A DNA stretch of 55,286 nucleotides from Prorocentrum cordatum (lineage: Eukaryota): NCBI GenBank assembly GCA_963575745.1, contig CAUYUJ010000169.1, positions 62,001 through 117,286 on the forward strand, read 5' to 3'. Below are positions 5,252 to 48,732 of the stretch, in pieces (positions within the stretch are counted from its first letter, which is position 1; the number at the start of each line of letters is the position of its first letter). The position numbers and the translations under genes are program-made. The notes beneath the pieces were generated by a model. That model was not told where the DNA came from. It saw only the letters and a program-made list of their open reading frames with translations, and did no database searches.

Positions 5252-5327
<76 letters not shown>

Positions 5328-6374: not shown

Positions 6375-9300
6375 TTACGAAAAAAAGTGGTGTGGGGGTC
6401 GCTGAGGGGTAGGTCCGCGTGGGAGGGAAGGTTGGCGTCTCGGTGGGGCGGCATGGTCGGCAGCGTGTGGTATCGGCGGTGCGTCCTCAATGCCACTCAG
6501 TCCTCGGGGGTCGCCCAGGTCTTGGTCGGCGTCTTGGCGGTGGCCGATGTCATCGTATGTGGGCGTTATCGCTCTTGGGGACGGAGTCGCAGTAGGGGTC
6601 GAGAGGTTTCCCGACAGGGCGGGGTTTTCGCTGGCTGGTCCGTCGTCCAAAGCGTCCGATCCCCCACCGAAGCTGAACAGGTCATCGTCCTGCTCATCAG
6701 CGTCTTGAAAAGGAACGGCGTTGTCGTGTGGGTGCGCTGCCGCACTCAATGGCGGAGTCGGGGGCGCCGTGCGGGTGCCCGACGGGGCAGGGCTGGCGCT
6801 GGCTGGCCCGTCGCCCAGGAAGTCCAGGCCTCCACCAAAGCCGAACGGGTCGTCCTCCTGTTCGTCGAATAACACCCGTTGGGCCTCGGCCCAGAGCTCG
6901 TCGGGGTCTTGTGGGATGTCTGGTCCAGCCGCGGGTGGTGCCTGGTCAGACAGCAGGGGATTTGGTTCCATTTTGTTTAGGTCCGCAGCTGTGAACCCAG
7001 CCCTGCGGTGTGGGAGGGGGAGTGTACGATGTCTACGCTCGTAGATGGCGACAGCGACTCCATGAAGCACGGTCGCTTGGCGATGTCGTGATTTGGCAGC
7101 TTCGACGATGTCGTCTGGAAGGTTATGAGTACGTGCCGCCGCTGTGGCGAGGGCGTCAGCCTGACAATTGAACTCCTCCGCGATGGGCCCGATGAGCCCG
7201 AGGTCGATGCCCATGTCGCCCCGGTGGCTAGCGACTTTCTCGACGCGGAACATGTTTGGCTTGGCCATGACGCATCGGTGGACCTTTTCCCAGAGCTCCA
7301 CGTGCGTGCCCTGCGGTGGTGAGTGTCCGTCGATGATCCTTTGGAAACCGTCAACCACCGCCTGGTTGTCCACGAAGACGTGCACAGGCCGTTCGGCACA
7401 TGCCGTGAGGTGGACAATGGCGAGGGTCTCCGCAAGCTGTGCGTTCTGCGTGATGCCGTGAACGCGCGCACTGTAGTTCATGCGGTGGTCGATGCCGTAG
7501 TAGACGCCGTAGCCCGCTCGTGCTAGCAATGGGATGGCTTGGTTGGTGCATGCACCGTCCGTGGCAGCGTAGACCCATGTCCAGCCAGTGTCGTGGTCAA
7601 GGTAGGTGGTGTAGGAGTCCTGGGCTGAAGCCGCAGGATCTCCCTCAGGTGGGGGGCGCGGTATGGGCTGAGGTAGCGGGTCCCTCGCGAGGTCGGCCTG
7701 CAGGTCGAGGAGGGCTGGGTCTTCATCGAAGAGCCCGCAGTGTCTTGCGCGCGGTGGAAGACGGGCCCACTGCTCGTCACTGATGAGGGTGGTAAGAGGG
7801 ACTCTTTCGCGGGCCCAGCACTTGCAGTCGCGAACAGTGTGCTCCTGAGTTTCCTCTTCCTCGTCGCAGTAACGGCAGATGGGGCTGGGGTCAGCGGACG
7901 TGTTTGATCGAGATCGTCGCTGTTGGGTGTGGTCCCCGCCCGACAGGTAGTTGAGGAGGAGCGCCAGCTGCCATGCGTTGCATTTGGCTGCTCCTTTCGT
8001 GCGGGCGAGCCACGTGCTGGCGAAAAGGTCGGGGCCCTGTCTGACAGAAGCCAGATGTCCAAGGTCATGACGCCGTGGCTTGATTTTTCTCAGAAAGGCT
8101 CTGCGTTGTGAGGCGCGCAGCATGTGAAGGAAGGCGTTTTGGGGAAGGTTCAGCCAACTGATCTGACAGCCCCAGTCGTCGTACATGATGCCAAATGTGG
8201 GCCAGGTCCAACGGAGCTGCTGAAGCGTCTGGACAAGTCGTCCAACAGGTCCTCCCCCGAGAAGGGTCTGGACATGGTGTTTGAGATCCCTGACGAGACC
8301 GCAAAGAGTGGCGTCGCGGTTGACCTGTCGCCGCAGACACAGGAAGACTTCACGCTGCATAATGGCGTCAATCTCCAGGGCGTGTCCTGGGGCGCACACG
8401 GCCATGAGAGTCCAAAACTCGACCCACCTGTTTCCCTTGGGGCGGATAGCCGCCTTGAGGGCATGGTTGTAGGCAGTTTTGACGGGGCCTGATGGGGCTT
8501 GAATGTCAGTGCCTGTGGTACAGACGCTGGCAGCAAGGGAGCGGGCGTGCCGCGCCTTAATACGCATCGGTGATGGGAGCTTGCCAATACGCGGCAGACG
8601 ACTAGTCGCCCTGCGAACACGGGCGTCAGCGGTGGCCGTGAGGTTGAGCGCGGCTGGAGCCGGCGCTGCCTCGGCGTTGATGTAACTTCCGACGAGCTTG
8701 AAGGAGTCGACCACTCGTAAGGGCCGTTCCGCCAAGGTGAGCTGGGTAACGGCGGTGTGAAGCTCGTCAGTAAGCGCCCACCCCGCCACTTTTCCAGGAT
8801 GAATGCGTTGACCAGAAAATCGATCAAACTTGGCGGTTTCATCAAGAGATTTCTGCAACTCGGGCGCGGTGTGGGTAGTGGAGTTGCTGTCATCAACAAA
8901 AGTAGTGCTGAGTGATCGCGGCACGTAACGATGCTGTCTCTTGGTCCAGACGCACATGAGCAGCTTAATGTCGTCCAGGGACCAAGAGCTTCCCTGGAGG
9001 TGACCGTTTGTCCTGGCCAGTTCCTTAGAGTACGCACCGTTCATGCGGATGTAGCGTTTGTGGCGACTGTAGAAGTTTCTGCTGACAGTAACGATGTCTT
9101 GGGGACACCCCGCGTGAAGCGCAAGGTTAAGGCATATGTCCGTGATGAGATAGTCGAAACACTTCTGTCGGTCCAGGGCAGCTCCAGCTAAGGGAAGGAG
9201 TAAGGCCCTGGCGTGTTCGATGCGCAGGGCAAGAGATGTGCTGACGTCCCCAATGGTAGCTTTGGGGACAGCGCCAAAACTCGTGGCGTGGGTCCATCCT

Positions 9301-9620
9301 TTCCGCCAGTCCGTGAGGCTGCGGTAAGCTGGCGTTTCCCACGCATACATCCAAACGGAAAGCACCGAGAGAAGACGTTGGTCCGTTGGGAGTTCGCCTC
9401 GGCCTTTTCGGAGGCACGGGTTTGGCACGTGGAGGAGGGGTTCTGGGATGGTGCCAGTGCGTTGCATAGCTCGTAGGACGCTGGCGAAGAGGCGAAGAAT
9501 GTCGTCGGGTAGCTCCTTTGCCTCCTTAGTAGTCCAGCCGTCCAGTCCCCCCGCGCGGCGCGGTGAACGGGTGCGAATGAAGTGGATGAGTTGGTCGTCG
9601 GTGAGGTGGAAAGGGGGTAG
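6375..9620 (-). CDS. LINE A polyprotein, C-terminal part: reverse transcriptase, zinc finger, RNase H
   Basis: RT motifs AGGLDG, QRLLSV, LDRQKCFD, GHLQGSSWS, FVDD (8889-8900), FKLVG. ZnF CRYC..ETQEH...C (~7823-7878). RNase H motifs TDGAC, AETLA, VDNQ, KVASH, NCQADALA (~7130-7570). By comparison with the sister copy the true stop is 5692-5694; 6110-6450 is garbled. Confidence 0.92.
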   Translation of the reverse strand, partial: LPPFHLTDDQLIHFIRTRSPRRAGGLDGWTTKEAKELPDDILRLFASVLRAMQRTGTIPEPLLHVPNPCLRKGRGELPTDQRLLSVLSVWMYAWETPAYRSLTDWRKGWTHATSFGAVPKATIGDVSTSLALRIEHARALLLPLAGAALDRQKCFDYLITDICLNLALHAGCPQDIVTVSRNFYSRHKRYIRMNGAYSKELARTNGHLQGSSWSLDDIKLLMCVWTKRQHRYVPRSLSTTFVDDSNSTTHTAPELQKSLDETAKFDRFSGQRIHPGKVAGWALTDELHTAVTQLTLAERPLRVVDSFKLVGSYINAEAAPAPAALNLTATADARVRRATSRLPRIGKLPSPMRIKARHARSLAASVCTTGTDIQAPSGPVKTAYNHALKAAIRPKGNRWVEFWTLMAVCAPGHALEIDAIMQREVFLCLRRQVNRDATLCGLVRDLKHHVQTLLGGGPVGRLVQTLQQLRWTWPTFGIMYDDWGCQISWLNLPQNAFLHMLRASQRRAFLRKIKPRRHDLGHLASVRQGPDLFASTWLARTKGAAKCNAWQLALLLNYLSGGDHTQQRRSRSNTSADPSPICRYCDEEEETQEHTVRDCKCWARERVPLTTLISDEQWARLPPRARHCGLFDEDPALLDLQADLARDPLPQPIPRPPPEGDPAASAQDSYTTYLDHDTGWTWVYAATDGACTNQAIPLLARAGYGVYYGIDHRMNYSARVHGITQNAQLAETLAIVHLTACAERPVHVFVDNQAVVDGFQRIIDGHSPPQGTHVELWEKVHRCVMAKPNMFRVEKVASHRGDMGIDLGLIGPIAEEFNCQADALATAAARTHNLPDDIVEAAKSRHRQATVLHGVAVAIYERRHRTLPLPHRRAGFTAADLNKMEPNPLLSDQAPPAAGPDIPQDPDELWAEAQRVLFDEQEDDPFGFGGGLDFLGDGPASASPAPSGTRTAPPTPPLSAAAHPHDNAVPFQDADEQDDDLFSFGGGSDALDDGPASENPALSGNLSTPTATPSPRAITPTYDDIGHRQDADQDLGDPRGLSGIEDAPPIPHAADHAAPPRRQPSLPRGPTPQRPPHHFFS

Positions 9621-12600
9621 CTGGTGATGGCGTAGGCAGCTCCTGTTGGTACTCGTCGTAGAAGTCGGCCCACGTCGGCATGGCTTCGGCGTCGTGTCCC
9701 GCACGTGCACGGTACCTGCCCAAGATGGGCTCCCAGGTGTCGACCATCAGCTTCAGCATGTCCTTGGTGTTAGCAACAATGGCGTTGGCAGGGAGGATGT
9801 CGGGGACTTGCGCAGGTGGTGGTTCACGAGGGTGGTCTTCGTCGCTGTCCGTGTCGGGCGAACTACCGTCGCTGGGGCTGAAGCCGCCAGCTTCGGTGTC
9901 AGCGTCGCTGTCGTCCGTGCAAGCTTCGTCAGGTTTACAGGCGTTGGTGTCGCAGTGGAGTTGCGTATCGTCAGGAGTGGTAGGCGTGCGGAGATACGCC
10001 GTGGGCGAGCTGTCAGCAGCCCGTGCGTATATGGCCGCCTTTCGCCCGCTTGGCTCCCGGACGCCCTCAGCCCATATCCTGATGCGTTCAGCTTTGGCAC
10101 GGTTCGCGCGTCGCGCCAGCTCCAAGTCGAGGTGTTGGATCAAAACGTCAAGGTGCTCTCCGTGCGGCACTGGCTCGTCGGGGGACCAGGCCTCGGGGAA
10201 GTCTAGGAGACCCGTGGGGCGCAGCTTGTGGCATAAGAGGCGGGCCGCGGCCCACGTGCAGTCGATGCGCTGCGCGAGGTACGGCGGGATGGCACGGCAA
10301 TCCAAATGATGGTGCAGTCCGATGAAACGGAGCTCGCAGAGTTGCCGATGGAGCTTGCGCAGTCGGTTCATGTGTATCGTGGAAGCTCCGTAGGTGGGGA
10401 AGGCGCGGGGGACAACTGGTCGATCTTCGAACGTGGGCGTGAGCCCGTGCATGGTGGGGGGCTTCTTTTTTGGGTGGTCGGACGGTGGAGGTGGCAGGTC
10501 GCGCAGACGGGTGAAATGGCACTCATGACTGGCCTCGTTAGCCAGGGCGAACATGCGCTCCACGTCGTCTCGTGTGTCGGCCTGCTCCATGCGGTCCTGA
10601 TATCGCTCAGCGATGAGGGTCCCTAGTGCCTGCAGCTCGTGACCCTCATGAGCTCCATCGTCGGGCGGATAGGGCGTGGGGGCATGAAGACGTCGGGCCG
10701 TATGGTCGAGGCGACTGAGGTCAAGCGTGACCTGCAGGCCAACGTGAGACTTCGCAGGCAAGTCGCGAAGGTAACAGAAGTCGGTGACAAGGGATCGCGC
10801 CGCTTGGTTGGCAATGATATAGTCGATGCGCGAAGTGCGGGGGCTCTTGGTGAGGCGGTCCCAGTCAGGGATATTGCCGTAAGTGTGCATGGTGTGGTCT
10901 GGTGTGCCCTCAGCAACGTTGAACCATCCGTGCTGCAACATGTGCAGAAGGTGTGGATTGTCGTCAATGTTCGTATTGGCGTCCATGCAGATGAAGTAAG
11001 GGGCTGAGCCGACCCTAGCGGCGGCGCAGTCAGCGAGCCGAAAAAGAGCTGTGCTGTCTCCTCCAGCAATCCCGTAGAGGCTCGCTATGTAGATCCCCGC
11101 GGGCCCGTGGTTGTTTCGTCGCCGCCTGTGGCGGTGTTGAGTGCAGAGCGGGAGAAAGACCTCGTGCCATCTTTTCTTGGCCTTGAGGGCGGCGATACAG
11201 GGCGTATTGTCGTCGACAGTGGAGTCGACGATGGCATCCTTAGAGAGAATGGCGACCCCTCCCGAGGCGCCAGTGTTTCCCACAACGGTGTGATCAGTGC
11301 CGCCGTGGGCAGCTCTGCGATGGGCTCGCGCCAGATCAAGGTCAGGTCCAAGACTGGCGTGGTATCCACCGTGGAGAGGATTGGCGGCGCTGGTAGCGAT
11401 GGCTTGCCTAGTCGGCTTGGCGTGTCGGGTCTCCTGCAGTGCTATGACAGCGGCATTGTGGTCGACACCAAGGGCGGTGATGGTTGGCCAGTTCGCTGAG
11501 AGACTGGTGATGTTAAGGCTGACGAGGTGTATGGAGCGACCTGGCCCGTCTCCATCGGTGGAACTGGGGTTTGCACGCCCCGCACGGTGAAGGTCGGCTT
11601 GACCCTCACCCAGGTAGGAGGCTTGGCCACAGTAGGAGCTCATGGCGTTCCCATGGATTAGCTTGACCGGGGCTGAAGCCGCCGTCAGGCCAGAAATATA
11701 GGCGGGACACGGTCGGCATTGCGCCAGGGGGGGTTCATAAATGTCAGTATAAATGTTACGAAAATTCCTCCTCACTCCAGTACCGTAGGGGACGAGGGGA
11801 GGAGAGGTGAGACGGCAGCAGAGGGGGAGGGAGGCGACTCCTCGATCCGTCCTGCCGAGCACAAAAACAAAAGCGAACCAGCGGCGGCGGCTAGGCGCGG
11901 CGGCGGCACAACGCACGCGCATGTACTGCGCACGCGACACCGCTGGTCCCTCCTGCGGTGGCGCGCCCGCCCCGTCAGTATCTTGATGAGCAGCATCTGG
12001 TGGAACAGCTCCAGCAGCACGGTCGGAGGCCTGGCGCTGGGCCTCTTCCATGCCCGCTGCCGTGAGGCCCACGTTGCGGACAGGGCTGATTCCCCGCGGG
12101 GCCGCCGCAGCCGCAGCAGCCGAGGTGGCGGGGGCTCCGCCCCGACTCTGAGGGGAGAGCGGTGAGCCCCCGCCGAAACCCGCCACAAGGTTCTTGACAC
12201 GGTACTTGTTCTTGAACGGGTCGAAGGTTGGCGCCTCGTCGATGGGGACGATCACGCGGGTGAGCAGCGGCGGCTCGTGGTCCGTGGACGGCGTCGGCGA
12301 GAGGTCGACCTGGCCAGGATCAATGACGCTGGCTCCGAAGCGTGGCACCACTTCGGGGGCTCGGCCATCGGCCTGAGTCTCGCGAGGCGGCGAGCTCGGG
12401 GAGCTCCCTGGGGCCTTGCGTGAACTGTGGCGGCTGCAGGTCCTGCTGCGCGGGACGCGCCCGCCCGTGTGGCGGTCGCGTGGCGAGGTCGCCTGCGCAT
12501 TAGCACGCTCGGAATCCGCCCTGCTCGGGGATCGGATCGGCGCCGCGCAGGGTGATGGGCTGGGCTGGCGAGGGGCGCTTATGCCGCCTTCCGCCGTGGC

Positions 12601-13305
12601 TGTGGCCTGGTCGGGGTCGACCGCGTCGGGGCGGGGGCTGACGTGGTGGGCGCTTCCCTCGCTGTGCCGCGGGGAGGCGCTGTGATGCGCCTGGATGTGC
12701 GTGAGGACGAGCGGGGTAAGCGGCTGCCTCCCCCGCTCAGGTGGGGCAGGTTTTGCCTGGGCAGGGCGCAGTGCTGCAGCTACGTTTGGCGGGGGCGTGT
12801 GCTGGCGAGGTTGCCAAGCGCGCACGTTCGCATCACGCCATCCTTCGGGGCGCCCAGCCCTGCCACGGTTTGTTGCAGCCCCCTGGGCTGAAGCCGCAGG
12901 GGTTATCACTGCGGGCTGGTTTCTGGAGGAGCCATCCTGTCGGCCTGAGTAAAGGCCCCAGGCGCGCGTAGACCCTGGCACTGGCGAGGTGGCCCTTAGG
13001 GCCTGCACGGGTGCACGCGGGTAGCCGATGACCGCTGGGTGTACCCTAGCATGGGGGGCGTGGCCGTAGCTGGAGGCGGCTGCTCCAGCAGCCGCGGGCC
13101 TGGCGCCTATGGGGCCACGGTAGTAGGCGGCAACCCCGTCGTAGGCCGTGTTGCCGCCTGTCGGGACTCGCGCCGGGGAGCGGTAGCGTGGCGTGCCGTG
13201 CTGTCCTGCGTCACGTTTGTCCCGCTGCTGGATGCGCTGCTGGTGCTGTTGGTGACGCTGCCAGTCGGCTCTCGAGAGGGGACGGGTGTCGGGGAGGATG
13301 GTGGG
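9526..13305 (-). CDS. LINE A polyprotein, N-terminal part: low-complexity region plus AP-endonuclease domain (~10720-11535)
   Basis: APE motifs LVSLNI, IALQETRH, GGVAIL, IASLYG, ICMDAN, SRIDYI, SHVGLQV. The frame switches to ORF 6375..9710 near 9603-9620. The ORF-track extension across the N gap is not real. Confidence 0.85.
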   Translation of the reverse strand, partial: PTILPDTRPLSRADWQRHQQHQQRIQQRDKRDAGQHGTPRYRSPARVPTGGNTAYDGVAAYYRGPIGARPAAAGAAASSYGHAPHARVHPAVIGYPRAPVQALRATSPVPGSTRAWGLYSGRQDGSSRNQPAVITPAASAQGAATNRGRAGRPEGWRDANVRAWQPRQHTPPPNVAAALRPAQAKPAPPERGRQPLTPLVLTHIQAHHSASPRHSEGSAHHVSPRPDAVDPDQATATAEGGISAPRQPSPSPCAAPIRSPSRADSERANAQATSPRDRHTGGRVPRSRTCSRHSSRKAPGSSPSSPPRETQADGRAPEVVPRFGASVIDPGQVDLSPTPSTDHEPPLLTRVIVPIDEAPTFDPFKNKYRVKNLVAGFGGGSPLSPQSRGGAPATSAAAAAAAPRGISPVRNVGLTAAGMEEAQRQASDRAAGAVPPDAAHQDTDGAGAPPQEGPAVSRAQYMRVRCAAAAPSRRRWFAFVFVLGRTDRGVASLPLCCRLTSPPLVPYGTGVRRNFRNIYTDIYEPPLAQCRPCPAYISGLTAASAPVKLIHGNAMSSYCGQASYLGEGQADLHRAGRANPSSTDGDGPGRSIHLVSLNITSLSANWPTITALGVDHNAAVIALQETRHAKPTRQAIATSAANPLHGGYHASLGPDLDLARAHRRAAHGGTDHTVVGNTGASGGVAILSKDAIVDSTVDDNTPCIAALKAKKRWHEVFLPLCTQHRHRRRRNNHGPAGIYIASLYGIAGGDSTALFRLADCAAARVGSAPYFICMDANTNIDDNPHLLHMLQHGWFNVAEGTPDHTMHTYGNIPDWDRLTKSPRTSRIDYIIANQAARSLVTDFCYLRDLPAKSHVGLQVTLDLSRLDHTARRLHAPTPYPPDDGAHEGHELQALGTLIAERYQDRMEQADTRDDVERMFALANEASHECHFTRLRDLPPPPSDHPKKKPPTMHGLTPTFEDRPVVPRAFPTYGASTIHMNRLRKLHRQLCELRFIGLHHHLDCRAIPPYLAQRIDCTWAAARLLCHKLRPTGLLDFPEAWSPDEPVPHGEHLDVLIQHLDLELARRANRAKAERIRIWAEGVREPSGRKAAIYARAADSSPTAYLRTPTTPDDTQLHCDTNACKPDEACTDDSDADTEAGGFSPSDGSSPDTDSDEDHPREPPPAQVPDILPANAIVANTKDMLKLMVDTWEPILGRYRARAGHDAEAMPTWADFYDEYQQELPTPSPATPFPPHRRPTHPLHSHPFTAPRGGTGRLDY

Positions 13306-13405
13306 NNNNNNNNNNNNNNNNNNNNNNNNNNNNNNNNNNNNNNNNNNNNNNNNNNNNNNNNNNNNNNNNNNNNNNNNNNNNNNNNNNNNNNNNNNNNNNN
13401 NNNNN
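13306..13405. other. Assembly gap (100 N)
   Basis: Run of N. Confidence 1.
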
Positions 13406-15029
13406 ATGCCAAATTCCTCTTTGAAACTTGAAGGAAAATCGCAGATTGTTGTGTACTCCCTCTTTCGATTCCGATGGGCCCCCGGGGCCTCCAGATGGCT
13501 CCAATATGTCCCACGGGGGCTCAAATAGACGCCCAATATTGCCCCAAAGCGGCCCCGAGAGCGCACAAACGCACCCAGAGAGCGCCTCAAGAGGCCCCCA
13601 ACAAGCGACTGTGGCTCAAGAGGGGCGCCGTAAAATAAGGACCCCCCCCTCTTTGATCGATCCGTTCCAAAATTGTCTCAAGAATGCCTCCAAAGCCCCC
13701 GACAAGGCCCAAATATGGCCCCAAGAGGCCACGCGAGGCCACCCAAACGCCCCCAAATGGTCCCCAAACGGCCCTTCAGAAGCACCCGAGACGCCCCAAG
13801 AGGTCCCGGGGGCCGCCAAGAGAACGCCAACGCCTTCCAAGATATATCCAAAAGGAATTCCTCCTGCTGCTTCTCGCTCCTCCCTCATCCCCCCTCCTCT
13901 CATCATCCGCCTGCTCCTCATCCTTTTCCCTTCTTCATCATCAATCCTTCTCCTCCCCATTATGCTTCTCCTCCTCCTCCTCCTTCGACCGATAACGGCT
14001 GCCCCTCTTCGTTCCGACATATCCCTAATCACCTCAACTCGGCTGGGCGTCCTTTCTGGATGGGCTGGTGATCGCGCGCTGGCACCGGTTGCATTTGAAA
14101 GGCGTTATCCTCCTCACTTGCAGGTTTGGAACATGCTGCCCTTGAAGAGCGCGAGGCAGAAAAGGCCGCTCAAGTGCAACCGCTCTGGGCGCGGGGCCCG
14201 GCGGCAGAAAAAAAAAAAAAACGCGTCTCGACAGCAGCAGGTTCCAGTTGCTCTTGAAGTGCGCTTGGTTTCTCACCACCAGGTTGCGCGCCGGGGGCGG
14301 CTGCGTTTGACGGGCGGTTTCTTCCTCATTTGCAAAATTGGGACATGCTTCCATCGAGGCGCGCGACGAAGAAAAGGCCACTCAAGTGGAACCGCTCTCG
14401 GCCCAGAATCTGGCGACAAGAGACCAAGCCCTTTTTCACGAGCATTCTCCTAACGGGCGGTGTCTTGCCAGCGTGCCTCCACCTCCCTCCTGCGCCGGCT
14501 GCGCCCCTCATCCCCATGCTGCTCATCCACCGCGTGCCCCCCTCAACTTCGCGACGGTTTCTCTCTGAACCTCCTGCGTGGGGTCGGAGGAGATGGGGTC
14601 GGAGGATCACGCTGCATAACCGATGCATCGCCGATGCGGTTCGATGCGGGGCCTGATTTGCGTCGCGCCGACGTCGCCGATGCACCGCCGGCGTCTTTGA
14701 TGCATCGCTTGTGCGTCGCCGATGTTTCGCCGATGTATCGGCGATGCGGCGAGATCCCCCGACCCATCTACTCGGGCCCATCTAGGAGGCGTCTATGCTC
14801 CGCCGCCGCAGTCCCCCCTGCGCGTTACAGCGCTGGTCGCCGCGCTGGCCCCCGACGCCGTCTACGCCTGGCACGCGCCAGCGCGACTGCGCGCCAAATC
14901 TGGCTTTCGCAACCGCGAGTTCGCGGGCTCGATATCGAAAACATGCATCACCTGGGTAATTTAAGCCATCATATGTAATTCGCACCAGCCCTTTAGGGCG
15001 TGATTGGTTGACAACGTTTCCCTTTTACC

Positions 15030-24700: not shown

Positions 24701-25946
24701 ATGCCTTGCGATTCTAAGGCCTGTATATGGTTGGGTCCTTCGCCAGGATAATGTTTGCTGCGCGTTTGGGACTCCGCCGGAACATTCAGAGCACGTTTCC
24801 CCTTGGGGGATCTGCCGTAATTGGTTGCCACGCAATCCTGCCGGTTCGAACGTTTGGCACATTATAGTGAATTCAGTATGTTTTGCTGGAGCTCCGCCTG
24901 AACACATCCCGAACGTATTTACCATTATTTTTCTCTCTGGGGGCAACGTCAGGGGGGGATAGGTTTCAGGGGGGATGCATCAACCGCCAATCGCCCATTC
25001 ATCGCCGACAGGGGCCCGACAGACCCCCCCCCCGTCCAGCTCCGTGCAGTGTCGCTATCGAGGGCTTATCGCCGACCTATCGGCGATGTATCGCCGATTC
25101 AAGGTCGACGTTCCCCCTTCCCTCCACCTGAGCTGGTCCCCCCCTAACGTTGCCCCATCGCCTCCTCCACTGTGCGGTAGGAGCGCTGGGTAAGAGTTGC
25201 GTCTGGCCTCAGACCCAGGGGAACTCCTTCTCTGATGAGGGCGGCAGTGATATCCGCGGCCAGTCCACGAGTAGAGTTCCACCTGCTTCCAGGCGCTGGA
25301 GCGGCCGCGAGTGGCTCCAAGTTTTCCCTGGAGATGTCTCTGGATTCCCCTGGTGGCTCACCTGGGTTTGCCTCGATTTATGCTTGGATGTGCCTGGATG
25401 CGCCTCGCTTGATCTGCCATTGACCTGGATTTTTGTCTGGCTCGGTCCCCACAAGCCGACGGCGACAAGTCGACAAGCCCCCAGGGATTACCCGATGCCC
25501 TCACCGCAGTCTGCCCCCCTGGAGACGGTCAGAGGCCGCCTGGCGAGGGCCCAGCGTCGGGCCCGAGCCCGCCCGAGCACGCCGTGGGCCGTCGGCCCGG
25601 GGCGCCGCGCAGACGTCCTGGAGGCGTCCAAGTCAAGCAGTGGCGAAGCGCCCCGGCGTGCCTATAGGCCCACCAAACAGTGTCCTAAGAGCCTCTTGTG
25701 TGGCTTCCGCAGAATGTTGGCGGAACGCTGCTGGCTGGGACTGTCTTGTTTGGACACATCGGCTTCACGTTCTAAGGACACTGTTTTGGCTATCGGGACA
25801 GTGCTGTGTTCTAAGAACATGCCGTAGTAGGCCTGCAGGAATGCCAGGACGGTCGGTCCCTGCTCAACCAAGACGGACAGCTCAACGTCTCCCCCAGAGG
25901 CCCCAGAGCACACCCAGACGGCCTCCAGATCACCAGAAGGCCCACT

Positions 25947-25967
25947 CCCTGCCCGCTTTGGCTCAAG
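25947..25967 (+). other. Degenerate dinoflagellate spliced-leader relic
   Basis: CCCTGCCCGCTTTGGCTCAAG matches CCGTAGCCATTTTGGCTCAAG at 16/21 positions, with the last 11 identical. It lies 63 nt before the in-frame ATG at 26031 and at the switch to lower-GC coding-like sequence. Confidence 0.65.
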
Positions 25968-26030
25968 GCGATGTGGCGCTAGACGTTGCGGTTCAAACCG
26001 GCATTCCTTGTTCGAGGCATCATTCTCTTG

Positions 26031-27615
26031 ATGCATCGTCGCATCGCCCCAGTTGTACATGACTTTCTCTGCCAGCCATCGTTCAGGCCTGTCAAGGCAT
26101 ATTTGAAGGTGATGACACACAGACAAACGTTGTTATCGAACGGCCAATTCTTCCAGAATGATTTTGCGACGCAGCTAAAACAACTGCGGAGTTCGGAATT
26201 GCACAAAACCGTTTCTGCTATGCCTAAGGGTGCCCTTCTACACACACATCTTGCTGGCATGGGTGATCGATTGTCTTTGCTTCAGAGCGCACAAACATAC
26301 TTCACGGACCGTGACGATCAATGCTGGGTCGGCGCGAATGGTGTTTGCCGCGTTTCGTTGCGCAGCGATGCTGGAGAGGTTTGCCTTGCTGATGTTGATG
26401 TTGTAGAGTTGTCACGAGACATGATGTTGCAGCCACCTGATGGAACTGGTGCCGATCTTTCCAACCTGCAGTGGAAGAAATTCGAGGCATGTTTCGATCG
26501 TTTCGATAGTCTCTTTTTTTACGAACCCTTCTTTGTAGATCACGTACTGCCAGCGGTTTTCACGAGCTTACGCAACGACCACGTGTGTGCAGTGGAGTTA
26601 GCCCTGAATCCGTGTCGCAAGCTTCACAGGGGCAGCGGAACAATCGATCCCACAGGAACCCGCCTCATAGGCCTAATCAAAGATTTTGCTGACCATATTG
26701 CTTTTCCGCTGCAGTTCCGCTTGACTTTGAGCCGCCGCAAGTCGATAGAGGACCTACGCGGCGATTGCGAGAGATTTATCGAGTTAAGGAGGTTGTTTCC
26801 AGACAGTGTGACGACATTCGATGTGTCAGGTCAGGAGGGCATTGGGAGGACATTGAGAGAGATGGAGCCTCTGGCAATCGCTTTACGCAAAGGTGGGTTT
26901 AAACACTGCGCTCTGCATGCTGGAGAAATCAATGATGTCCGGCATCCCGATGTTGTGCAAGCGTTGTTCAGCAGGTCCTGGGAACCATTGAGGCTAGCCC
27001 ACCCCATTGCAACAGCGAAAGCAGGTGATCATATTCTCAATGCTATCAGGTAGAAGGGCATTTGGCTGGAGGTAATGCCTTTCAGCAATGTGTTCTTGGG
27101 ATATACTGCAAACATTCAGAACCACCCAATCGTATCTCATAGGGAATTGCTGACATCGCAAGGAGTGATGGCGTCTGATGATGATGGTATATTTGGAAGC
27201 ACAAATTTAACTGACAATTTTGCATTCGCAAGTCTAGCTTGGGAGCTAGAAGTACCCAGCATGCGGAAATTGGCTGAAAACAGCATCGTTGCAAGTGGCT
27301 TTCCAGAGGATGTAAAGCACAAGCTTCAAGCACAGCATAAAAAAGATTGGCAGCAGTGGGAAGCTGAATGCGCAGCACCTGCCGATCGCGTCATCGGCCA
27401 AATTCTCAGCGCCTCAAAACAAACACATCAGGAGACGCACAACCCCGATCTACTTCAGATGTTTGATCAATTCGTAGGCAACCCGATCGCCAGGTTTCGG
27501 AGAATGGATGGCATTGCCCTCCAGTATGCTTTTACGATCGAGATGTACACTGCATTGATTCCACCGTTCAGCTCCGAACTTGATGTTGTGTTTGTTGCAT
27601 CAAACAGACATGGAT
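26031..27615 (+). CDS. Segment 1: ADA2/ADGF-like adenosine deaminase domain plus start of PA domain (in-frame TAG at 27051)
   Basis: Motifs MPKGALLHTH, FDVSGQE, LHAGE, RLAH, LEVMPFSN, HPI, ASDDDGIFG, LAENSI. All Zn-binding and catalytic positions appear intact. ORFs 25986..27053 and 27075.. share a frame. Confidence 0.9.
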
Positions 27616-29085
27616 ATTGGGAAGACCTTACGGCCGGTGCCGCCGACCCTGAAGGGGGGGACGACGACCACGACGGCGGCGTCGGCGACGACGACGCTGA
27701 CGTGGGGCAGAGATGCTTCGTGGGGCCTCTTCGGAGCGCGCCCGTAGGCCTCTGGGGGGCAGTTTTGGGTCCTCTTGGGAGCATTTTGGGGCCCCTTGTA
27801 AGAGCCTCTTGGTGGTCCCTTCGGGCTTCCTAGGGGGTTCTTGGGGCCTCTTGGGGGCCTCTTGGGGCCTCCTAGGGGGTTCTCAGTGCCGAGGGCTCGA
27901 AATGTTCGTTCGGGTTCCCGTGTGGTCACCCTCTTGGAGCCGTTTTGGGGCTTCTTGGGCCATCCTGCGGCCGTCTTGTGTTGATTTGGGGCCGTCTTAG
28001 AAATCTCTTGGGGGACTCTTGTGCAGATTTTTGTGGCATCTTGGGCCGTCTTATGGCGTCGGGAAACCGAAAAGGCGAGAACGCCAGATTCTTTCGAACA
28101 CCAGATTGAAATCATTGAGTTCTGCTTCTTGGGGCTCTATTGGTGTGCTCTTGGAGGCCTCTTCGAGCCTCTTGGCAGCCGCTTGGGCTGTCATGAGGCC
28201 ATCTCTGGCGTCTTGTCTCCTTTGCCTTGGCTTTGGGCTGGGTAGGGCGAATGCATGGGGGGCTGACCGCTCGGCGGGAGGCACCGCGAGCGCGCTTCTC
28301 GCAGGGCGCGCCAGAGGTGACCTCGCCCCCCCACTCGAGCGAGTCGCTTTGCGAAGAGGGCGCAAGCGCGTTGAATGGCCCCGCCCACCCGCACCTGCCC
28401 CGCCCCAGAACGCGGGGTTCGGGCGGGGGCTTCTTCCCACCCCGAGCGCAGAGGCTCGAGGAGGTCCCCCTCCGCGCGGTTCCAGGACCACTCGAGAGGT
28501 GTGACTCACGCGTGCACGCGCAGACCAGAGCCTGCTCCGCAGGACCATGCCCTGGTGGAGGGCCTGGCCCCTCTCCCCCACGTTGGCGCGGTCCTGGCTC
28601 GTCTCTCTCTCTCTCTCTCTCTCTCTTGCGGCACTCCCCCACGTGCTTGCCGCATTCGCTTCGCTGCAGCTCGCTCCGCGCCGTCGGGACCGATTGTTTG
28701 GCGATTCGGGGCTTTCTTGGACCGTCTTGGGCGCCTCTTGGGCTGTCTTGGGGCCTTTTTGGGCCCCAGGACCCCCTCGGGGGAGGATGGCATTCTGACC
28801 CGGGACCCCCCCCCCCTTGGGACCCCCCTCAGGATATCCCCAAGAGGGGGAAGGGATCAAAGGCAATGGGCTTCCACTCGACTCAACTGCGGCGTTGCTC
28901 AATCTCGCTTTGGTTTTGCTTTGGCTGGTTCGCTCGACGAGGAGAGCCCAGTGAAAGGGGGGGGGAGCGGCGAAGGGCTCTGGGAAAGGAGGGTCAAACG
29001 CGACGGCGATGGCGACGACGACGACGACGACGACGACGTCGAGTCAAAAAGAACAGCGTCTTCCACACGCCGACTGGGTCGGCGG
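27616..29085 (-). mobile_element. Non-autonomous Helitron2/Helentron-like insertion (boundaries +/-3 nt)
   Basis: Asymmetric IR CCGCCGACCC (27640-27649) / GGGTCGGCGG (29076-29085); terminal hairpin CGCCGAC-TGG-GTCGGCG; no TSD; CTCTTGGGG-rich interior shared with 47980-48600. Confidence 0.7.
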
Positions 29086-30913
29086 ACTGTGATTTCGTGC
29101 ATGAACACATTGCAGGAAAGGCTGTCGTTGTGTTTTGGAAGAATAGAGAGTCTGTCGGTGTTGCTATGAGAAACGCCGTGGGCGCTTCGGCATCAGCACT
29201 CATATGTGTCCTACCGACTAACGAGCTCCTCAAGATCAAGACAAGTCCTTGGGCTACCGCAGGCTTCCCTGATGATGTGTTGGCCCATGATGACAAGCTG
29301 ATCCCTTTTGTGATCATTGGCCGGAGTGATGGGATTGCTTTGTGCCGCGAGTTGCGTGCAGGCAGTCGAATACCAGTTTTGTTCGAGAAAGATGATGTCC
29401 TACAGCGCATCGGCGAATTCACAGCAAAGTTGGGTAGCATTTTCTTGTGCATGCAGCAGACTGAGTTGATTGAAGACATCTCCGAGCAGTTCGATGCACT
29501 CATGCGTTGTATGACTGGGTATCCCAGCTTTGCAGACTTACAACGTCTTATTGCCACAGGAAACAGTGAAGATGAGGCAACACGCCTCGCCATGTACATC
29601 ATTTGGTTGACAGTCCTGTCAGTTGACATTCGCAGCTTTGCCAGGCTCGCAAGTCAGATGCTCAGTGCATTCGAAGCCGATTTGAGATTTGTTTTGAGCC
29701 CACGGCAGATCGACCTCCACAAGTCGATGCTTGTGCATCTGAGGGAAGATGCTAGTGCTAAGCGCAAAGTCTCCGAATCAGCTCTTTTTGAATCGTTAAC
29801 ACAAATGGAAGCGATCTTAGCAGATTTCAAACAAGCTGCAAAGGATGACACCTTTAGTCGGCATTCTACGCATGTGATGGAGTCTATCACTGATATGTCA
29901 GACCCACTTGCGGCAATGAAGGCTCTGCATTTGATCTGCACAACCGAGATGCTTGCTAATATTCCTGCTGTTTTGCAGCAACACGTGGCCACGATAGAAA
30001 GCATTATTGAAGACCTCAACTGCGTGACGAGCCCTATGGACATGATCCTTCAGGAAATAGGGTTTGCTCGCATTGCAGTGAAGGTCTGTACGACGAAGCA
30101 AAGGTTGGAGTTGCAAATGGCTTTTAGGGCTTTTAGATTTGCGCAGAAAGATTTCGCGCTATATAACAGTGTATTCGGCGCTTGGTGCTCCCATGCCGCT
30201 ATGAACACGATGAGAGATATCTTCGGTGCACACTGGCAACCTGAAGCCTTCCGGGAATCAATCGCAGCTGCACTTAGTGAGGCAGATGCATGGGTTTGGC
30301 ACGAACTTACGACGAATATGAACGCGCTCCTATATGTTGAAAATCCGAGGCAGCAGTCGCAGATTTTAGTGCAGATATTGACTTTGGTTCGGACGACGCT
30401 CTTGAAGCTTCTCAGTGGTACCGACTCGCAAATGAAATTTGTGGAAGGTCAGCCAGACTCAGCACCATCGCCCAGTCATCAGGTGATGCTCTACACGCGG
30501 AGCCATTTCAAGCTGGAAGAAGTCAAATGCGCCTTGGATGTGGTGGATTCAGAAGCGCCGATCATGAGTAATAAACCCCGCGTCGACGTCAGTGTCGTCA
30601 TGTGCACTGAGACCCCCGAGGATGCCCTTCAACAGGGGGCAGATGCTATCCCATTGCGAGCATATCTATCAAATCGTTGCAAGATGGCGTGCGGTATTCA
30701 GGGGTGCCCCATTCTAATTGAGAGTTGTTTTCTGTTGGACGCAAGGGTGGCAGAAATTGATGTTGATATGATGACCATCAGCGAGCTCAGACAATCCGGA
30801 AGGGCTTCGCCCTTTGCCGCCCCCACTCTCTGTATTAGAATTGGAGATGTCCGCGCTATGCTGGGACGTGCCGGCGCTGTTTGGAAAGTTTCGGGGAGCA
30901 TTTGGCGAGGACG
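29086..30913 (+). CDS. Segment 2: PA (protease-associated) domain, ~370-aa helical region, N-terminal half of Ham1-like domain
   Basis: PA-like CDF..IAGKAVVV..NAVGASASALI..IPFVIIGRSDGIAL. Ham1-like VMLYTRSHFKLEEVKCAL and NRCKMACGIQGCPILIESCFL (compare human ITPA VFVTGNAKKLEEV and [21 protein letters not shown]). Confidence 0.8.
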
Positions 30914-31548
30914 ATTGGCACTCCACAAGCACCTTGAGCTGTTGCTGACCGCTTCGCTTCCTTCTCGGAGCGCGAAGCTGGCGTAATCTGAAAGAGACTC
31001 TGGCCTGAGAAGCGCGCGCCTGGCATACTTTACAAAAAGGATTCTTCTCTCGGGAGCGCGAGCCCGGCGTAGGTTGTTCAAGATTCTGGCCTCGGGAGCC
31101 CGGCTTTGGCGTAATGTGCCAGGGATTTTGGAATCGGGGGCGCGAATTCGGAGTAATCCAGTTATGGATTCTCATTTCGGGAAGATCCATACGGCGTAAT
31201 CTGCAAGAGAATCTCGCCCCGGGAGCGCAAATTCGGCGCAGGTCACGAAGGATTCTGGCTTCGGGAGAGCGAGTCTTGCGTAATTTACAAAGGGCTCTGG
31301 CCTCAGGAGCGCGAGTCTGGCGCAACTCACTAAGGATTCTGGCCTCGGGAGTGCGATTCCGGCGTAATTTGCGAAGGATTCGGGTTTCGGGGCGCGAACC
31401 CGGCGTAATCTGCAAAGGATCATTGGCCCGGGAAGGCGAATCTCACGCATGGTTACGCGTTCCAGGGCCACGCAGATTTCTGAGAACCTTTAAGGGGGTG
31501 GGTGGAAGCGGGGTGGCGCTGGGCTACCCCCCTCGCGCGGACAGCAAC
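30914..31548 (-). mobile_element. Second asymmetric-IR (Helitron2-like) insertion containing a ~40-bp tandem repeat
   Basis: IR GTTGCTGACCGC (30941-30952) / GCGGACAGCAAC (31537-31548), 11/12 complementary. Starts with ATTG like the first insertion. Interior repeat GGCGTAATTTGCGAAGGATTCTGGCCTCGGGAGCGCGA. Confidence 0.7.
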
Positions 31549-31978
31549 GATTGACAGCAGGAAGCAGAACGGACGTAGCATCACAACATTGGGAAGAGGC
31601 CACCTCAGCCCCGCAGCTTGGTGGCCCCACAGGGAGGCCAGCGGATGGATGGTTTGGGATACGGCAGTCAATGCGTTCAGGGGAGGTGAGCAGAATTGGT
31701 ATGGCCAGCTTGCCCTTGAATTGTCTTATCTCGCTTACTTCGATTCGCAGGGTATGGAGCAGCCCAAAGTGTTTCGTCGGGCTGGGCTCGGCATGATAGG
31801 AGCGCCTCAAGGTGTGCGATGCTTTGGGTGGGATCGGTACTTTCGGCCGCTGTCACCACACGCATCTCCATTCACATACGCACAAATATTGCCGCGCCGG
31901 AAGGCTGAGATGTCCGCACGCGGATTTAATGTTCGGCAGTTGAACACTTTCTTGCAGGAGAGCCACCTCAGGATCTGA
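31549..31978 (+). CDS. Segment 3: C-terminal half of Ham1/ITPase-like domain
   Basis: KVFRRAGLGMIGAPQGVRCFGWDRYFRP..TYAQILPRRKAEMSARGFNVRQLNTFL aligns by eye to ITPA [55 protein letters not shown]. Confidence 0.85.
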
Positions 31979-32576
31979 ATAACAAATTTGTCCAGTGAAG
32001 GATTTGGATCATGCATGGTCTTGGTTGACACAGCTGAGATCCGCAGGGGACTCCAACATGACCCTCCACTCGGTCCCGCAACGGCTCCAATGTCCCCCCC
32101 GCCAGATGCCCCCGAAAACCTCGATGAGATTTCCACCAGCCTCGCCACGACGCCCCCTGCAAAGTCTCAACGATCTTACACTCACACTCCAAGAAGAGCC
32201 CCACGCAGACCCATAGACCTCAAGCCAGCCCACTTCATATTGCGAAGGCCTTACGGCCGGTGCCGCCGACCCTGAAGATGAGGACGCTGACCACGGCGAG
32301 GTAGAAGGAGGAGAAGTAGGACGAGCAGGGGGATGAGCCGCATGAGGAGGAGGAGGGTGAGGAGGATGGGGAGGAGGAGGTGGAGCCAGAGCTTCAGGGA
32401 AAGGGGGGGGGAATGGAGGCGGGTTAGAACCCCACACAGACCCACAGACCTCAAGCCAGCCCACTTCATATTTTGTCTCGCACTTGCCCTGGACAGCTCG
32501 AGGGTCCGCAGTGACAGCTTCGGGCACCCGAGTGCAGCCCTCAAGGGCCCGTGGGGCTCCGTAAGACCGTGGGGCA

Positions 32577-47902: not shown

Positions 47903-48732
47903 ATTTAATCGCTTCGCTCATTCCGCCGGCCCATACAGTCTCATGTCTGCCGTTTGCCCGAGGGCCTGGTGTCAATGCGGCGCTTTGGGGGTTCCTGGGG
48001 CCGCTTGGGGCACTCCTGGGGCGCTCGGGGGGGCATTTGGGGGGCCTCCTGGGGCCGCTTGGGGGACTCTTGGGGGCCTCCTGAGGGCCCCGTGGGGGCC
48101 TCTTGGGGCCTCTTAGGGGCCTCGTAGGGGCTTCTTAGGGCCGAGGGCTCGAAATGTTGTTTCGTGTTCCCTCTCTGGGGCCCCTTTGGGGGCGTTCTTG
48201 GGGCCCTCTTGGACCGTTTTGGAGGCTTCTTGGGCCGTCTTCGAGCCCTCTTGGGCCATCTTGGGGCCCTCTTGGGTGCCTCTTGGGCCCTCTTGGGGCG
48301 ATCTTGGGGGCCTCTTGGGCCGTCTTGGGGCGTCGGGAAGCCGAAAAGGTGGAAGCTCCAAAATCTCTCAAAAACCTATGGAAAAACAATGATTTTTGCC
48401 TCCGGGGGCCCTATTGGGAGTGCTCTTGGAGGCCTCTTGGGGCGTCTGGGGGCTATCTTGGGCGTCTTGGAGCGATCTTGTGGCATGTCGGACCCCTCGT
48501 GTACCATCTTGGGGGCCTCTTGGGGGCCTCTTGGCCTTTCTTGGGGCTCTCGGGGACGTCTCGGAGCCCTGTTGGTGCGCTCATGGAGCGCTCGGGGGGA
48601 CCCGGCCGGGACCTGGTCGGGGTACTTTTCGTCCGGGGACCCCCAGGGGCCGCCCCGCGCGCGCGAACTAGAAAATTGTTAACCAGTTACCGGAGATCTT
48701 AGCACGCCTCTGGCCCGTTGGGCCGGCGAATT
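47903..48732 (-). mobile_element. Helitron2-like non-autonomous element
   Basis: Asymmetric IR CGCCGGCCCA (~47924-47933) / TGGGCCGGCG (~48719-48728); terminal hairpin GGCCC-GTT-GGGCC; interior homologous to 27720-28210. Confidence 0.65.

Follow-up and report, generated by a model that had tools for sequence, protein, structure and literature searches.

The 55,286-nucleotide (nt) stretch of Prorocentrum cordatum DNA analysed here (contig CAUYUJ010000169.1, positions 62,001 to 117,286 of the forward strand; hereafter the window) holds, at 26031 to 31978 on its plus strand, a real and transcribed nuclear gene of a dinoflagellate-type genome, in which an adenosine deaminase of the ADA2/ADGF type is joined to a C-terminal domain resembling the Ham1/ITPase pyrophosphatases. 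The reading favoured here, to which a probability of about 45% is given, is that the product would be a lineage-restricted purine deaminase carrying a 6-oxopurine-nucleotide-binding tail, which, as judged from the sequence, would act in cis with little or no hydrolysis. If functional, such a protein would link, in a eukaryote, the deamination of adenine to a domain that binds 6-oxopurine nucleotides, a coupling that has not been described; a full-text literature search yielded no paper on an adenosine deaminase-Ham1/ITPase fusion.

Gene layout and transcript

The gene is laid out as follows, in the coordinates of the window.

25957..25967, + strand: relict 3' end of the dinoflagellate spliced leader, TTTGGCTCAAG (exact; the RNA contigs start at its last letter)
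25967..26030, + strand: 5' untranslated region, from RNA contigs, holding a three-codon upstream open reading frame (ORF)
26031..27615, + strand: coding exon 1, with the ADA2/ADGF-type deaminase, a linker and the first strand(s) of a PA-like part (RNA contigs and domain matches)
27051..27053, + strand: in-frame TAG, codon 341, within the conserved deaminase core; CAG in three of the four RNA data sets
27616..29085, + strand: intron 1, 1470 nt, 64% G+C, ends AT..GG, with dispersed and simple repeats
29086..30793, + strand: coding exon 2, with the PA-like part, a helical region and the N-terminal half of the Ham1-like domain (RNA contigs)
30794..31644, + strand: intron 2, 851 nt, ends AT..GG, mostly 42-nt tandem repeats
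31645..31978, + strand: coding exon 3, with the C-terminal half of the Ham1-like domain (Ham1p_like and human ITPA matches) and the TGA stop at 31976-31978
31979..32051, + strand: 3' untranslated region as far as the RNA contigs reach (to 32051 in X1 and 32046 in X2)
25986..27053, 27075.., 28227..30986 and 31502..31978, + strand: the four ORFs from which the gene was first recognized

Of 24 public runs listed for the interval 25900-32100, 20 contain part of it and 8 contain at least half of its words; they come from 8 studies, and the best shares, 0.57-0.60, are the same as the exon fraction of the query. Four RNA data sets (X1, X2, X10 and X23) were aligned to positions 25500-32400. A 3765-nt contig of X1 covers 25967-27615, 29086-30793 and 31645-32051 without a single difference from the window, and a 3759-nt contig of X2 has the same three pieces, ends at 32046 and shows one difference. 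The joints 27615->29086 and 30793->31645, which skip 1470 and 851 nt, were found in all four runs. Run X23, which is raw stranded RNA, supports them with 4 and 11 reads, respectively, and the first mates all lie on the minus strand, from which it follows that the RNA is of the plus strand. RNA depth within both skipped stretches is close to zero. The exons have a G+C content of about 49-54% and the introns of 59-64%, the window average being about 60%.

The initial annotation had read the four ORFs, all of which were found where it had placed them, as parts of a single frame once two insertions are removed, and spliced RNA indeed joins the ATG at 26031 to the TGA at 31976-31978. The deaminase and Ham1-like parts are therefore on one mRNA, spanned by contigs that run through all exons, and are not separate genes. 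Three details had to be revised. The joined frame of 3627 nt has 1208 codons plus the TGA and not about 1280; both removed stretches are spliced out, but at borders other than those proposed, namely 27616-29085 and 30794-31644; and the ORFs 25986..27053 and 27075.. are in the same frame and are parted by the in-frame TAG, which the initial annotation does not mention, and not by an insertion. Low-depth contigs of X1 also lie within the introns, again with no differences from the window, and these, together with a EukProt fragment that reads into intron 2 (see below), indicate that the locus itself is transcribed.

The deaminase domain

The N-terminal part was assigned by profile and structure matches to the adenosine deaminases, and its motifs lie as follows.

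26163..27359, + strand: match to the ADGF model TIGR01431, residues 45-443 (96.8 bits, E 1.3e-27, model positions 58-474 of 479)
26241-26249, + strand: HTH motif, residues 71-73, aligned to ADA2 columns
26916-26927, + strand: HAGE motif, residues 296-299, aligned to ADA2 columns
26991-27002, + strand: RLAH motif, residues 321-324, aligned to ADA2 columns
27174-27185, + strand: SDDD motif, residues 382-385, aligned to ADA2 columns

The Pfam A_deaminase profile (PF00962) gave 52.9 bits against a cut-off of 27, and the solved structure of ADA2/CECR1 (3lgd) was matched with an E of 1.1e-18, the HxH, HAGE, His and Asp-Asp columns being aligned. The intact HxH, HAGE, RLAH and SDD motifs and the ADA2/ADGF affiliation described in the initial annotation were thus both recovered. 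The score against TIGR01431 is far under the family cut-off of 315 despite the nearly full-length coverage of the model. The protein shares with the ADA2/CECR1-ADGF family this length of the model and all of the motifs; unlike these enzymes, it has no hydrophobic N-terminal signal, continues for about 740 residues behind the deaminase and is interrupted in the assembly by an in-frame TAG.

An N-terminal secretion signal is typical of ADGFs. None was found here by simple hydropathy, the first 30 residues having a mean of -0.04, and the strongest 19-residue hydropathy window of the whole protein reaches 1.53, at residue 696.

The second-best solved match of the deaminase is the adenosine monophosphate (AMP) deaminase of Helix pomatia. 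This enzyme and Aplysia AGSA (9nte and 9nti) were matched over residues 45-442 with E values of 1.3e-10 and 4.2e-10 and belong to the same subfamily, but their chains are without a C-terminal Ham1-like domain. As far as the records of these two structures go, ADGF-type enzymes can act on nucleotides.

The PA-like stretch and the helical middle

Between the two terminal domains, a PA-like stretch and a helical region are found.

29106..29342, + strand: PA-like stretch, sub-threshold (12.9-14 bits, E 0.057-0.13)
29388..30413, + strand: helical region, some 340 residues, modelled as helices at low confidence

The PA domain of the initial annotation did not reach the Pfam threshold (PF02225, 12.9-14 bits against a cut-off of 23.9), in a scan in which the stretch, which crosses intron 1, was left unjoined. 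An AlphaFold model of the exon-2 protein made without an alignment had a pLDDT (predicted local distance difference test) of 37 and showed helices in the middle region. The helical region, rightly described as unassigned, had no family or structure relative in Pfam and PDB at E values up to 10; a match to the ATP synthase gamma subunit (E 0.27) was rejected as being at chance level.

The Ham1/ITPase-like domain

The C-terminal domain is split by intron 2, and its recognizable parts are the following.

30474..30793, + strand: N-terminal half, residues 992-1098, from hhalign of the joined domain
30495-30521, + strand: TRSHFKLEE, N-terminal motif
30711-30734, + strand: ILIESCFL, acidic position
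31823-31834, + strand: FGWD, in the C-terminal half
31913-31921, + strand: SAR, in the C-terminal half

The Pfam profile Ham1p_like (PF01725) was matched above its cut-off of 22.5 bits, with 24.5-25.1 bits, by exon 3 only, over positions 116-184 of the 186 in the profile; among solved structures, exon 3 matches human ITPA (2car) best, though weakly (E 0.0046). For the whole domain, an alignment of 31 RdgB sequences was made from K-12 rdgB and the 30 best loci found across 121 proteobacterial genomes, each of which gave a match. Against this alignment the joined domain gave an hhalign probability of 81% over 180 columns (template 1-197) and a score of 40.3, whereas 100 shuffles of it scored 14.3 +/- 2.9 with a maximum of 24.0. 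A hidden Markov model built from the same 31 sequences and used in local mode matched the C-terminal half only (15.1 bits). A Ham1/ITPase-like domain had been predicted at this place, and the comparison suggests that it is real but divergent.

Several features of the family are kept with respect to RdgB: the Thr, Lys and Glu of the N-terminal motif, the Glu in the E41 column, FGWD and the Lys...S-x-R tail. Others are changed. The family motif T-x-N-x-x-K-x-x-E reads TRSHFKLEE, with Ser in place of Asn; the ADDSGL of RdgB, in which the second of the two acids is the catalytic Asp, corresponds to IE-SCF, with a single Glu followed by Ser; the SHR motif reads SAR, with Ala in place of His; and the RdgB loop that follows the two adjacent acids is unaligned. 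Phosphate-binding and base-binding positions appear to be preserved despite the damaged catalytic motifs. Seen next to the ITPA/RdgB/Ham1 pyrophosphatases (PF01725), the domain appears to align at the level of the fold across its whole length, but it is split by an intron, fused behind 990 residues, and above the Pfam threshold only in its C-terminal third.

As the domain has one acid for the family's two and has lost the motif Asn and His, binding without efficient hydrolysis is preferred here. The same observations can be weighed for an enzyme of two steps, in which the deaminase would make products of the inosine triphosphate (ITP), deoxyinosine triphosphate (dITP) or inosine monophosphate type and an active Ham1 domain would hydrolyse the triphosphate, so that the adenine nucleotide pool is drained or cleaned; the Glu of ILIESCFL would stand in for the catalytic Asp. 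The substrates of both domains are of the same compound class, some ADGF-family enzymes deaminate nucleotides (the Helix pomatia match being a case in point), the N-terminal Lys and Glu, the E41-column Glu and FGWD are kept, one alignment puts a Glu beside the Asp column, and the Ham1-like part has no differences from X10 (see below). Yet the changes of Asn to Ser and of His to Ala, the single acid and the unaligned loop each suggest impaired catalysis, and such a two-step enzyme is considered rather unlikely.

The in-frame TAG at codon 341

The TAG lies between RLAH and the conserved LEV-P-SN stretch, before the SDDD motif. The letter at 27051 is T in the RNA of X1, with other letters at 0 of a depth of 44.1, and C in X2 (18.7 of 18.7), in X10 (6.4 of 6.4) and in X23 (4 of 4 reads). 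In X2 this site is the single difference from the window in 3759 nt. Translation in the assembled strain would yield only 340 residues, and the allele would be null unless the U is edited to C.

That the TAG is no defect, because mRNA editing turns the U at 27051 into C, perhaps under certain conditions only, and thereby regulates full-length translation, is quite improbable, and this estimate is independent of those given to the functional readings. It would agree with X2, which differs from the window at 27051 alone and could therefore be of the same strain, and with the widespread mRNA editing that is described, in the portion of the report available, for a high-G+C dinoflagellate (PMC10666404). 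The RNA of X1, however, shows T only, and a plain polymorphism between strains explains the site with fewer assumptions. A reassignment of TAG as a sense codon was also considered and found unlikely; there is one TAG in 1208 codons, and the gene terminates with TGA. A stop codon that is read as a sense codon in other samples offers a testable case of strain polymorphism versus mRNA editing.

Conservation and relatives

The RNA of X10 differs from the window at 17 sites, of which 6 are synonymous and 10 non-synonymous, the remaining one being the TAG/CAG site; the ratio of non-synonymous to synonymous rates (dN/dS) is about 0.5. The differences are distributed over the protein as follows.

Deaminase part: 3 differences in 1410 covered nt
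Middle: 14 differences in 1424 covered nt
Ham1-like part: 0 differences in 611 covered nt

The end domains, with 3 differences in 2021 nt, are better kept than the middle, but five of the six synonymous changes also lie in the middle, and the contrast between the domains is therefore weak evidence of selection.

A HMMER search with a 648-residue query (window 29040-30983) in 1.84 billion representatives gave one match only, an identical fragment of 68 residues (P0001) from EukProt, which is the sole member of its cluster and corresponds to window 30684-30887. Leaving exon 2, the fragment continues through 31 codons of intron 2, so either unspliced RNA or a gene call made on DNA is its source. 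Word-based homologue searches with the deaminase part gave 0 of 7999 sequences of near lengths and 0 of 8000 longer ones at E 0.001, which is weak evidence, and two metagenome scans gave 160 and 77 pattern matches, none of which was confirmed.

These results bear on the view that the gene is a chimeric retrogene, young and confined to its lineage, that has little function or none and is transcribed and spliced while it drifts, the TAG allele being a step in its decay. The relict spliced leader at the 5' end, the TAG in both the assembly and the X1 RNA, the dN/dS, the degenerate Ham1 motifs and the want of any homologue of the 648-residue query other than a piece of the same gene would all be expected of such a copy. 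Its frame of 1208 codons is nevertheless open in three of the four RNA data sets, with TAG/CAG as the sole interrupting site; all deaminase motifs are intact, removal of both introns preserves the frame, and the end domains differ less than the middle. On balance, a drifting copy is distinctly unlikely.

Proposed function

According to the favoured reading, that of a deaminase with a nucleotide-binding tail, the deaminase would produce the inosine form of an adenine nucleoside or nucleotide, and the Ham1-like tail would bind a 6-oxopurine nucleotide of the ITP, dITP or xanthosine triphosphate type with little or no hydrolysis. Instead of a house-cleaning enzyme, the tail may then be a module that binds product or regulates, affecting activity or assembly in cis, and the middle region would probably serve assembly.

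A number of observations weigh against this proposal. Taken by itself, the N-terminal half of the Ham1-like domain does not score significantly (18.0 against 12.2 +/- 2.2 for shuffles, with a maximum of 20.4), and searches of Pfam and PDB with this half alone gave no match. What stands in the catalytic Asp column (Ser, a gap or Glu) varies with where the gap is placed, so that catalysis is probably impaired but may not be lost. The frame of the window is interrupted by the TAG, which the X1 RNA also carries, and an intron-less expressed copy may exist elsewhere in the genome. The dN/dS is drawn from 16 substitutions only, and either constraint is weak or the sample is too small; the representative library, word-based and metagenome searches found no relatives in which the architecture is conserved. 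We infer substrate, binding and regulation alike.

Comparison with the Kongming system

The initial annotation had likened the protein to the bacterial Kongming defence system, which uses dITP as messenger and is activated by a viral nucleotide kinase. In the part of the preprint available (bioRxiv 10.1101/2024.12.20.629578), KomA is described as a PF00962 deaminase, KomB as a PF01725 protein in which the catalytic Asp is replaced by His while Asn9, Lys12 and Glu15 are kept and required for function, and KomC as a SIR2 effector (PF13289). On this partial account, what is shared is the pairing of a PF00962-family deaminase with a PF01725-family domain having an altered catalytic acid. The protein described here is, in contrast, eukaryotic and a single chain, its deaminase is of the ADGF type, and neither a SIR2 or other effector nor any sign of a trigger kinase accompanies it. 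By the residues published for KomB, the Asp column holds Ser or Glu and not His, and the position of Asn9 is occupied by Ser.

As had been noted, no effector is visible. No SIR2, TIR, nuclease or other effector was found in the four ORFs of the gene, and none (SIR2, TIR or other) in 118 of the 131 ORFs of at least 150 residues in the window, the other 13 being the 4 gene ORFs, scanned separately, and 9 intronic or antisense ones. The only match among the 118 surrounding ORFs is a LINE-like (long interspersed nuclear element) endonuclease, and PADLOC gave only a generic deaminase match (CARF_ADA, 53.7 bits).

A single-chain eukaryotic analogue of Kongming, with an inosine nucleotide as signal, an inactive Ham1-like sensor and an unrecognized effector, perhaps the orphan helical region, could draw on the KomA/KomB-like pairing with its damaged acidic pair, as far as the preprint's available part describes it, and on the 340 middle residues that have no family match. 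It is very improbable, since no effector was found in the protein or in the 118 further ORFs, PADLOC recognizes only the generic match, the KomB signature is not seen (by the residues accessible in the preprint), and the gene of the sequenced strain carries a stop codon. A more elaborate form, in which a dead Ham1-like reader is combined in one chain with a helical effector or assembly switch of 340 residues and with U-to-C editing of the TAG as a possible gate, is likewise regarded as very improbable.

The likeness to Kongming is one of parts and not of the system and, if functional, would be convergent, because the deaminase is of the ADGF type and the best, though weak, solved match of the C-terminal half of the Ham1-like domain is human ITPA. 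This fits the caution, expressed at the outset, that convergence is as plausible as homology. The claim of an inactive inosine-nucleotide sensor holds in part: at least one of two adjacent acids is lost and an inactive binding module is possible, but nothing found here speaks of signalling, and that of Kongming-like signalling was not upheld. Nothing yet ties the gene to immunity.

KomB-like comparators were sought in bacterial genomes, and candidates from two of them (G020 and G033) were rejected as fusions of Ham1 to an AAA kinase beside GHMP kinases, which are not Kongming. Proteobacterial fusions of a divergent Ham1 domain to an AAA_17/AAA_18 (Zeta-toxin-like) kinase domain were observed at L113:4304-5875 (minus strand) and L114:3106-4785; these adjoin a GHMP-kinase gene, and one is also near a D12 adenine methyltransferase.

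Probable retrogene origin

The string TTTGGCTCAAG, which we take to be the last 11 letters of the 21-nt dinoflagellate spliced leader (DinoSL), has only one exact copy in the window. In dinoflagellates, a relict leader in DNA marks a gene that was copied back from a processed mRNA. Because of this relict at its 5' end, the gene is most likely a retrogene, and the two introns would then have been gained after retroposition, as repeat-derived sequences spliced at AT..GG borders. It would thus be an RNA-supported example of a dinoflagellate retrogene with two such gained introns, one of them within a conserved domain.

Between the relict leader and the main ATG, the upstream ORF of three codons (ATG TGG CGC TAG) lies at 25971-25982. 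Elsewhere in the window, the minus strand at 6378-13677 has a pair of long ORFs that overlap each other (1123 and 1383 residues), and the second matches Exo_endo_phos weakly (22 bits, E 1.5e-4). The pair is probably a LINE-type retrotransposon and could be a source of the reverse transcriptase that gives rise to retrogenes.

The introns

The two introns have similar 5' ends, ATTGGGAAGACCTTACGG in 27616-29085 and ATCCGGAAGGGCTTCGCC in 30794-31644, and seem to belong to a single family of non-canonical introns, derived from repeats, that a retrogene has gained. Borders of the type GT/GC/GA..AG were ruled out for both, the ambiguity of the borders being only 1 and 2 letters. The initial annotation had described the insertions as bounded by inverted repeats. 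For intron 1 this holds weakly: its end-to-end duplex has -61.9 kcal/mol, against -46.7 +/- 5.3 in 200 shuffles of which the best had -62.9, and a perfect 10-nt complement joins 27641-27650 to the final 10 nt. For intron 2 (-50.1 kcal/mol against -48.0 +/- 5.2) there is no pairing above the shuffles.

Non-canonical repeat-derived introns with hairpin-forming ends are described in the available part of a report on Amoebophrya (PMC7789003), as are introner elements whose two ends are joined by inverted repeats and whose borders carry 3-5 nt direct repeats, and introner elements are also described, in the portion accessible, for the high-G+C genome of Prorocentrum cordatum (PMC10666404). To the extent that these sources describe them, the introns here share with dinoflagellate introners their derivation from repeats and their non-GT-AG borders in a dinoflagellate-type gene. 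At 1470 and 851 nt, they are far longer than the average of 120-240 nt given there for Amoebophrya (PMC7789003), their border repeats are of only 1 and 2 nt, and intron 2 is without the paired ends of the introners in the same report.

Within intron 1, positions 27756-28175 are 72% like 48007-48450, which makes this a dispersed repeat of 420-450 nt; it is rich in 21-nt units of the TCTTGGGGCC type. (CT)n microsatellites are found at 28598-28626, inside intron 1, and at 1855-2217 and 5256-5317. The first 60 nt of intron 1 recur with 87% identity at 32237-32298, about 190 nt past the end of the mRNA contigs, and the first 40 nt of this copy have an RNA depth of up to about 3770 (X1) with many different flanks, which indicates that the motif is present in many transcripts.

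Just upstream of the gene, the stretches 25633-25678 and 25827-25868 have RNA depths of hundreds to thousands, and a joint 25663->25842 (ends AT..AA, with one extra G) is carried by contigs of X1, X2 and X10 and by one read of X23. These stretches probably belong to a repeated, highly expressed element and not to the deaminase-Ham1 gene.

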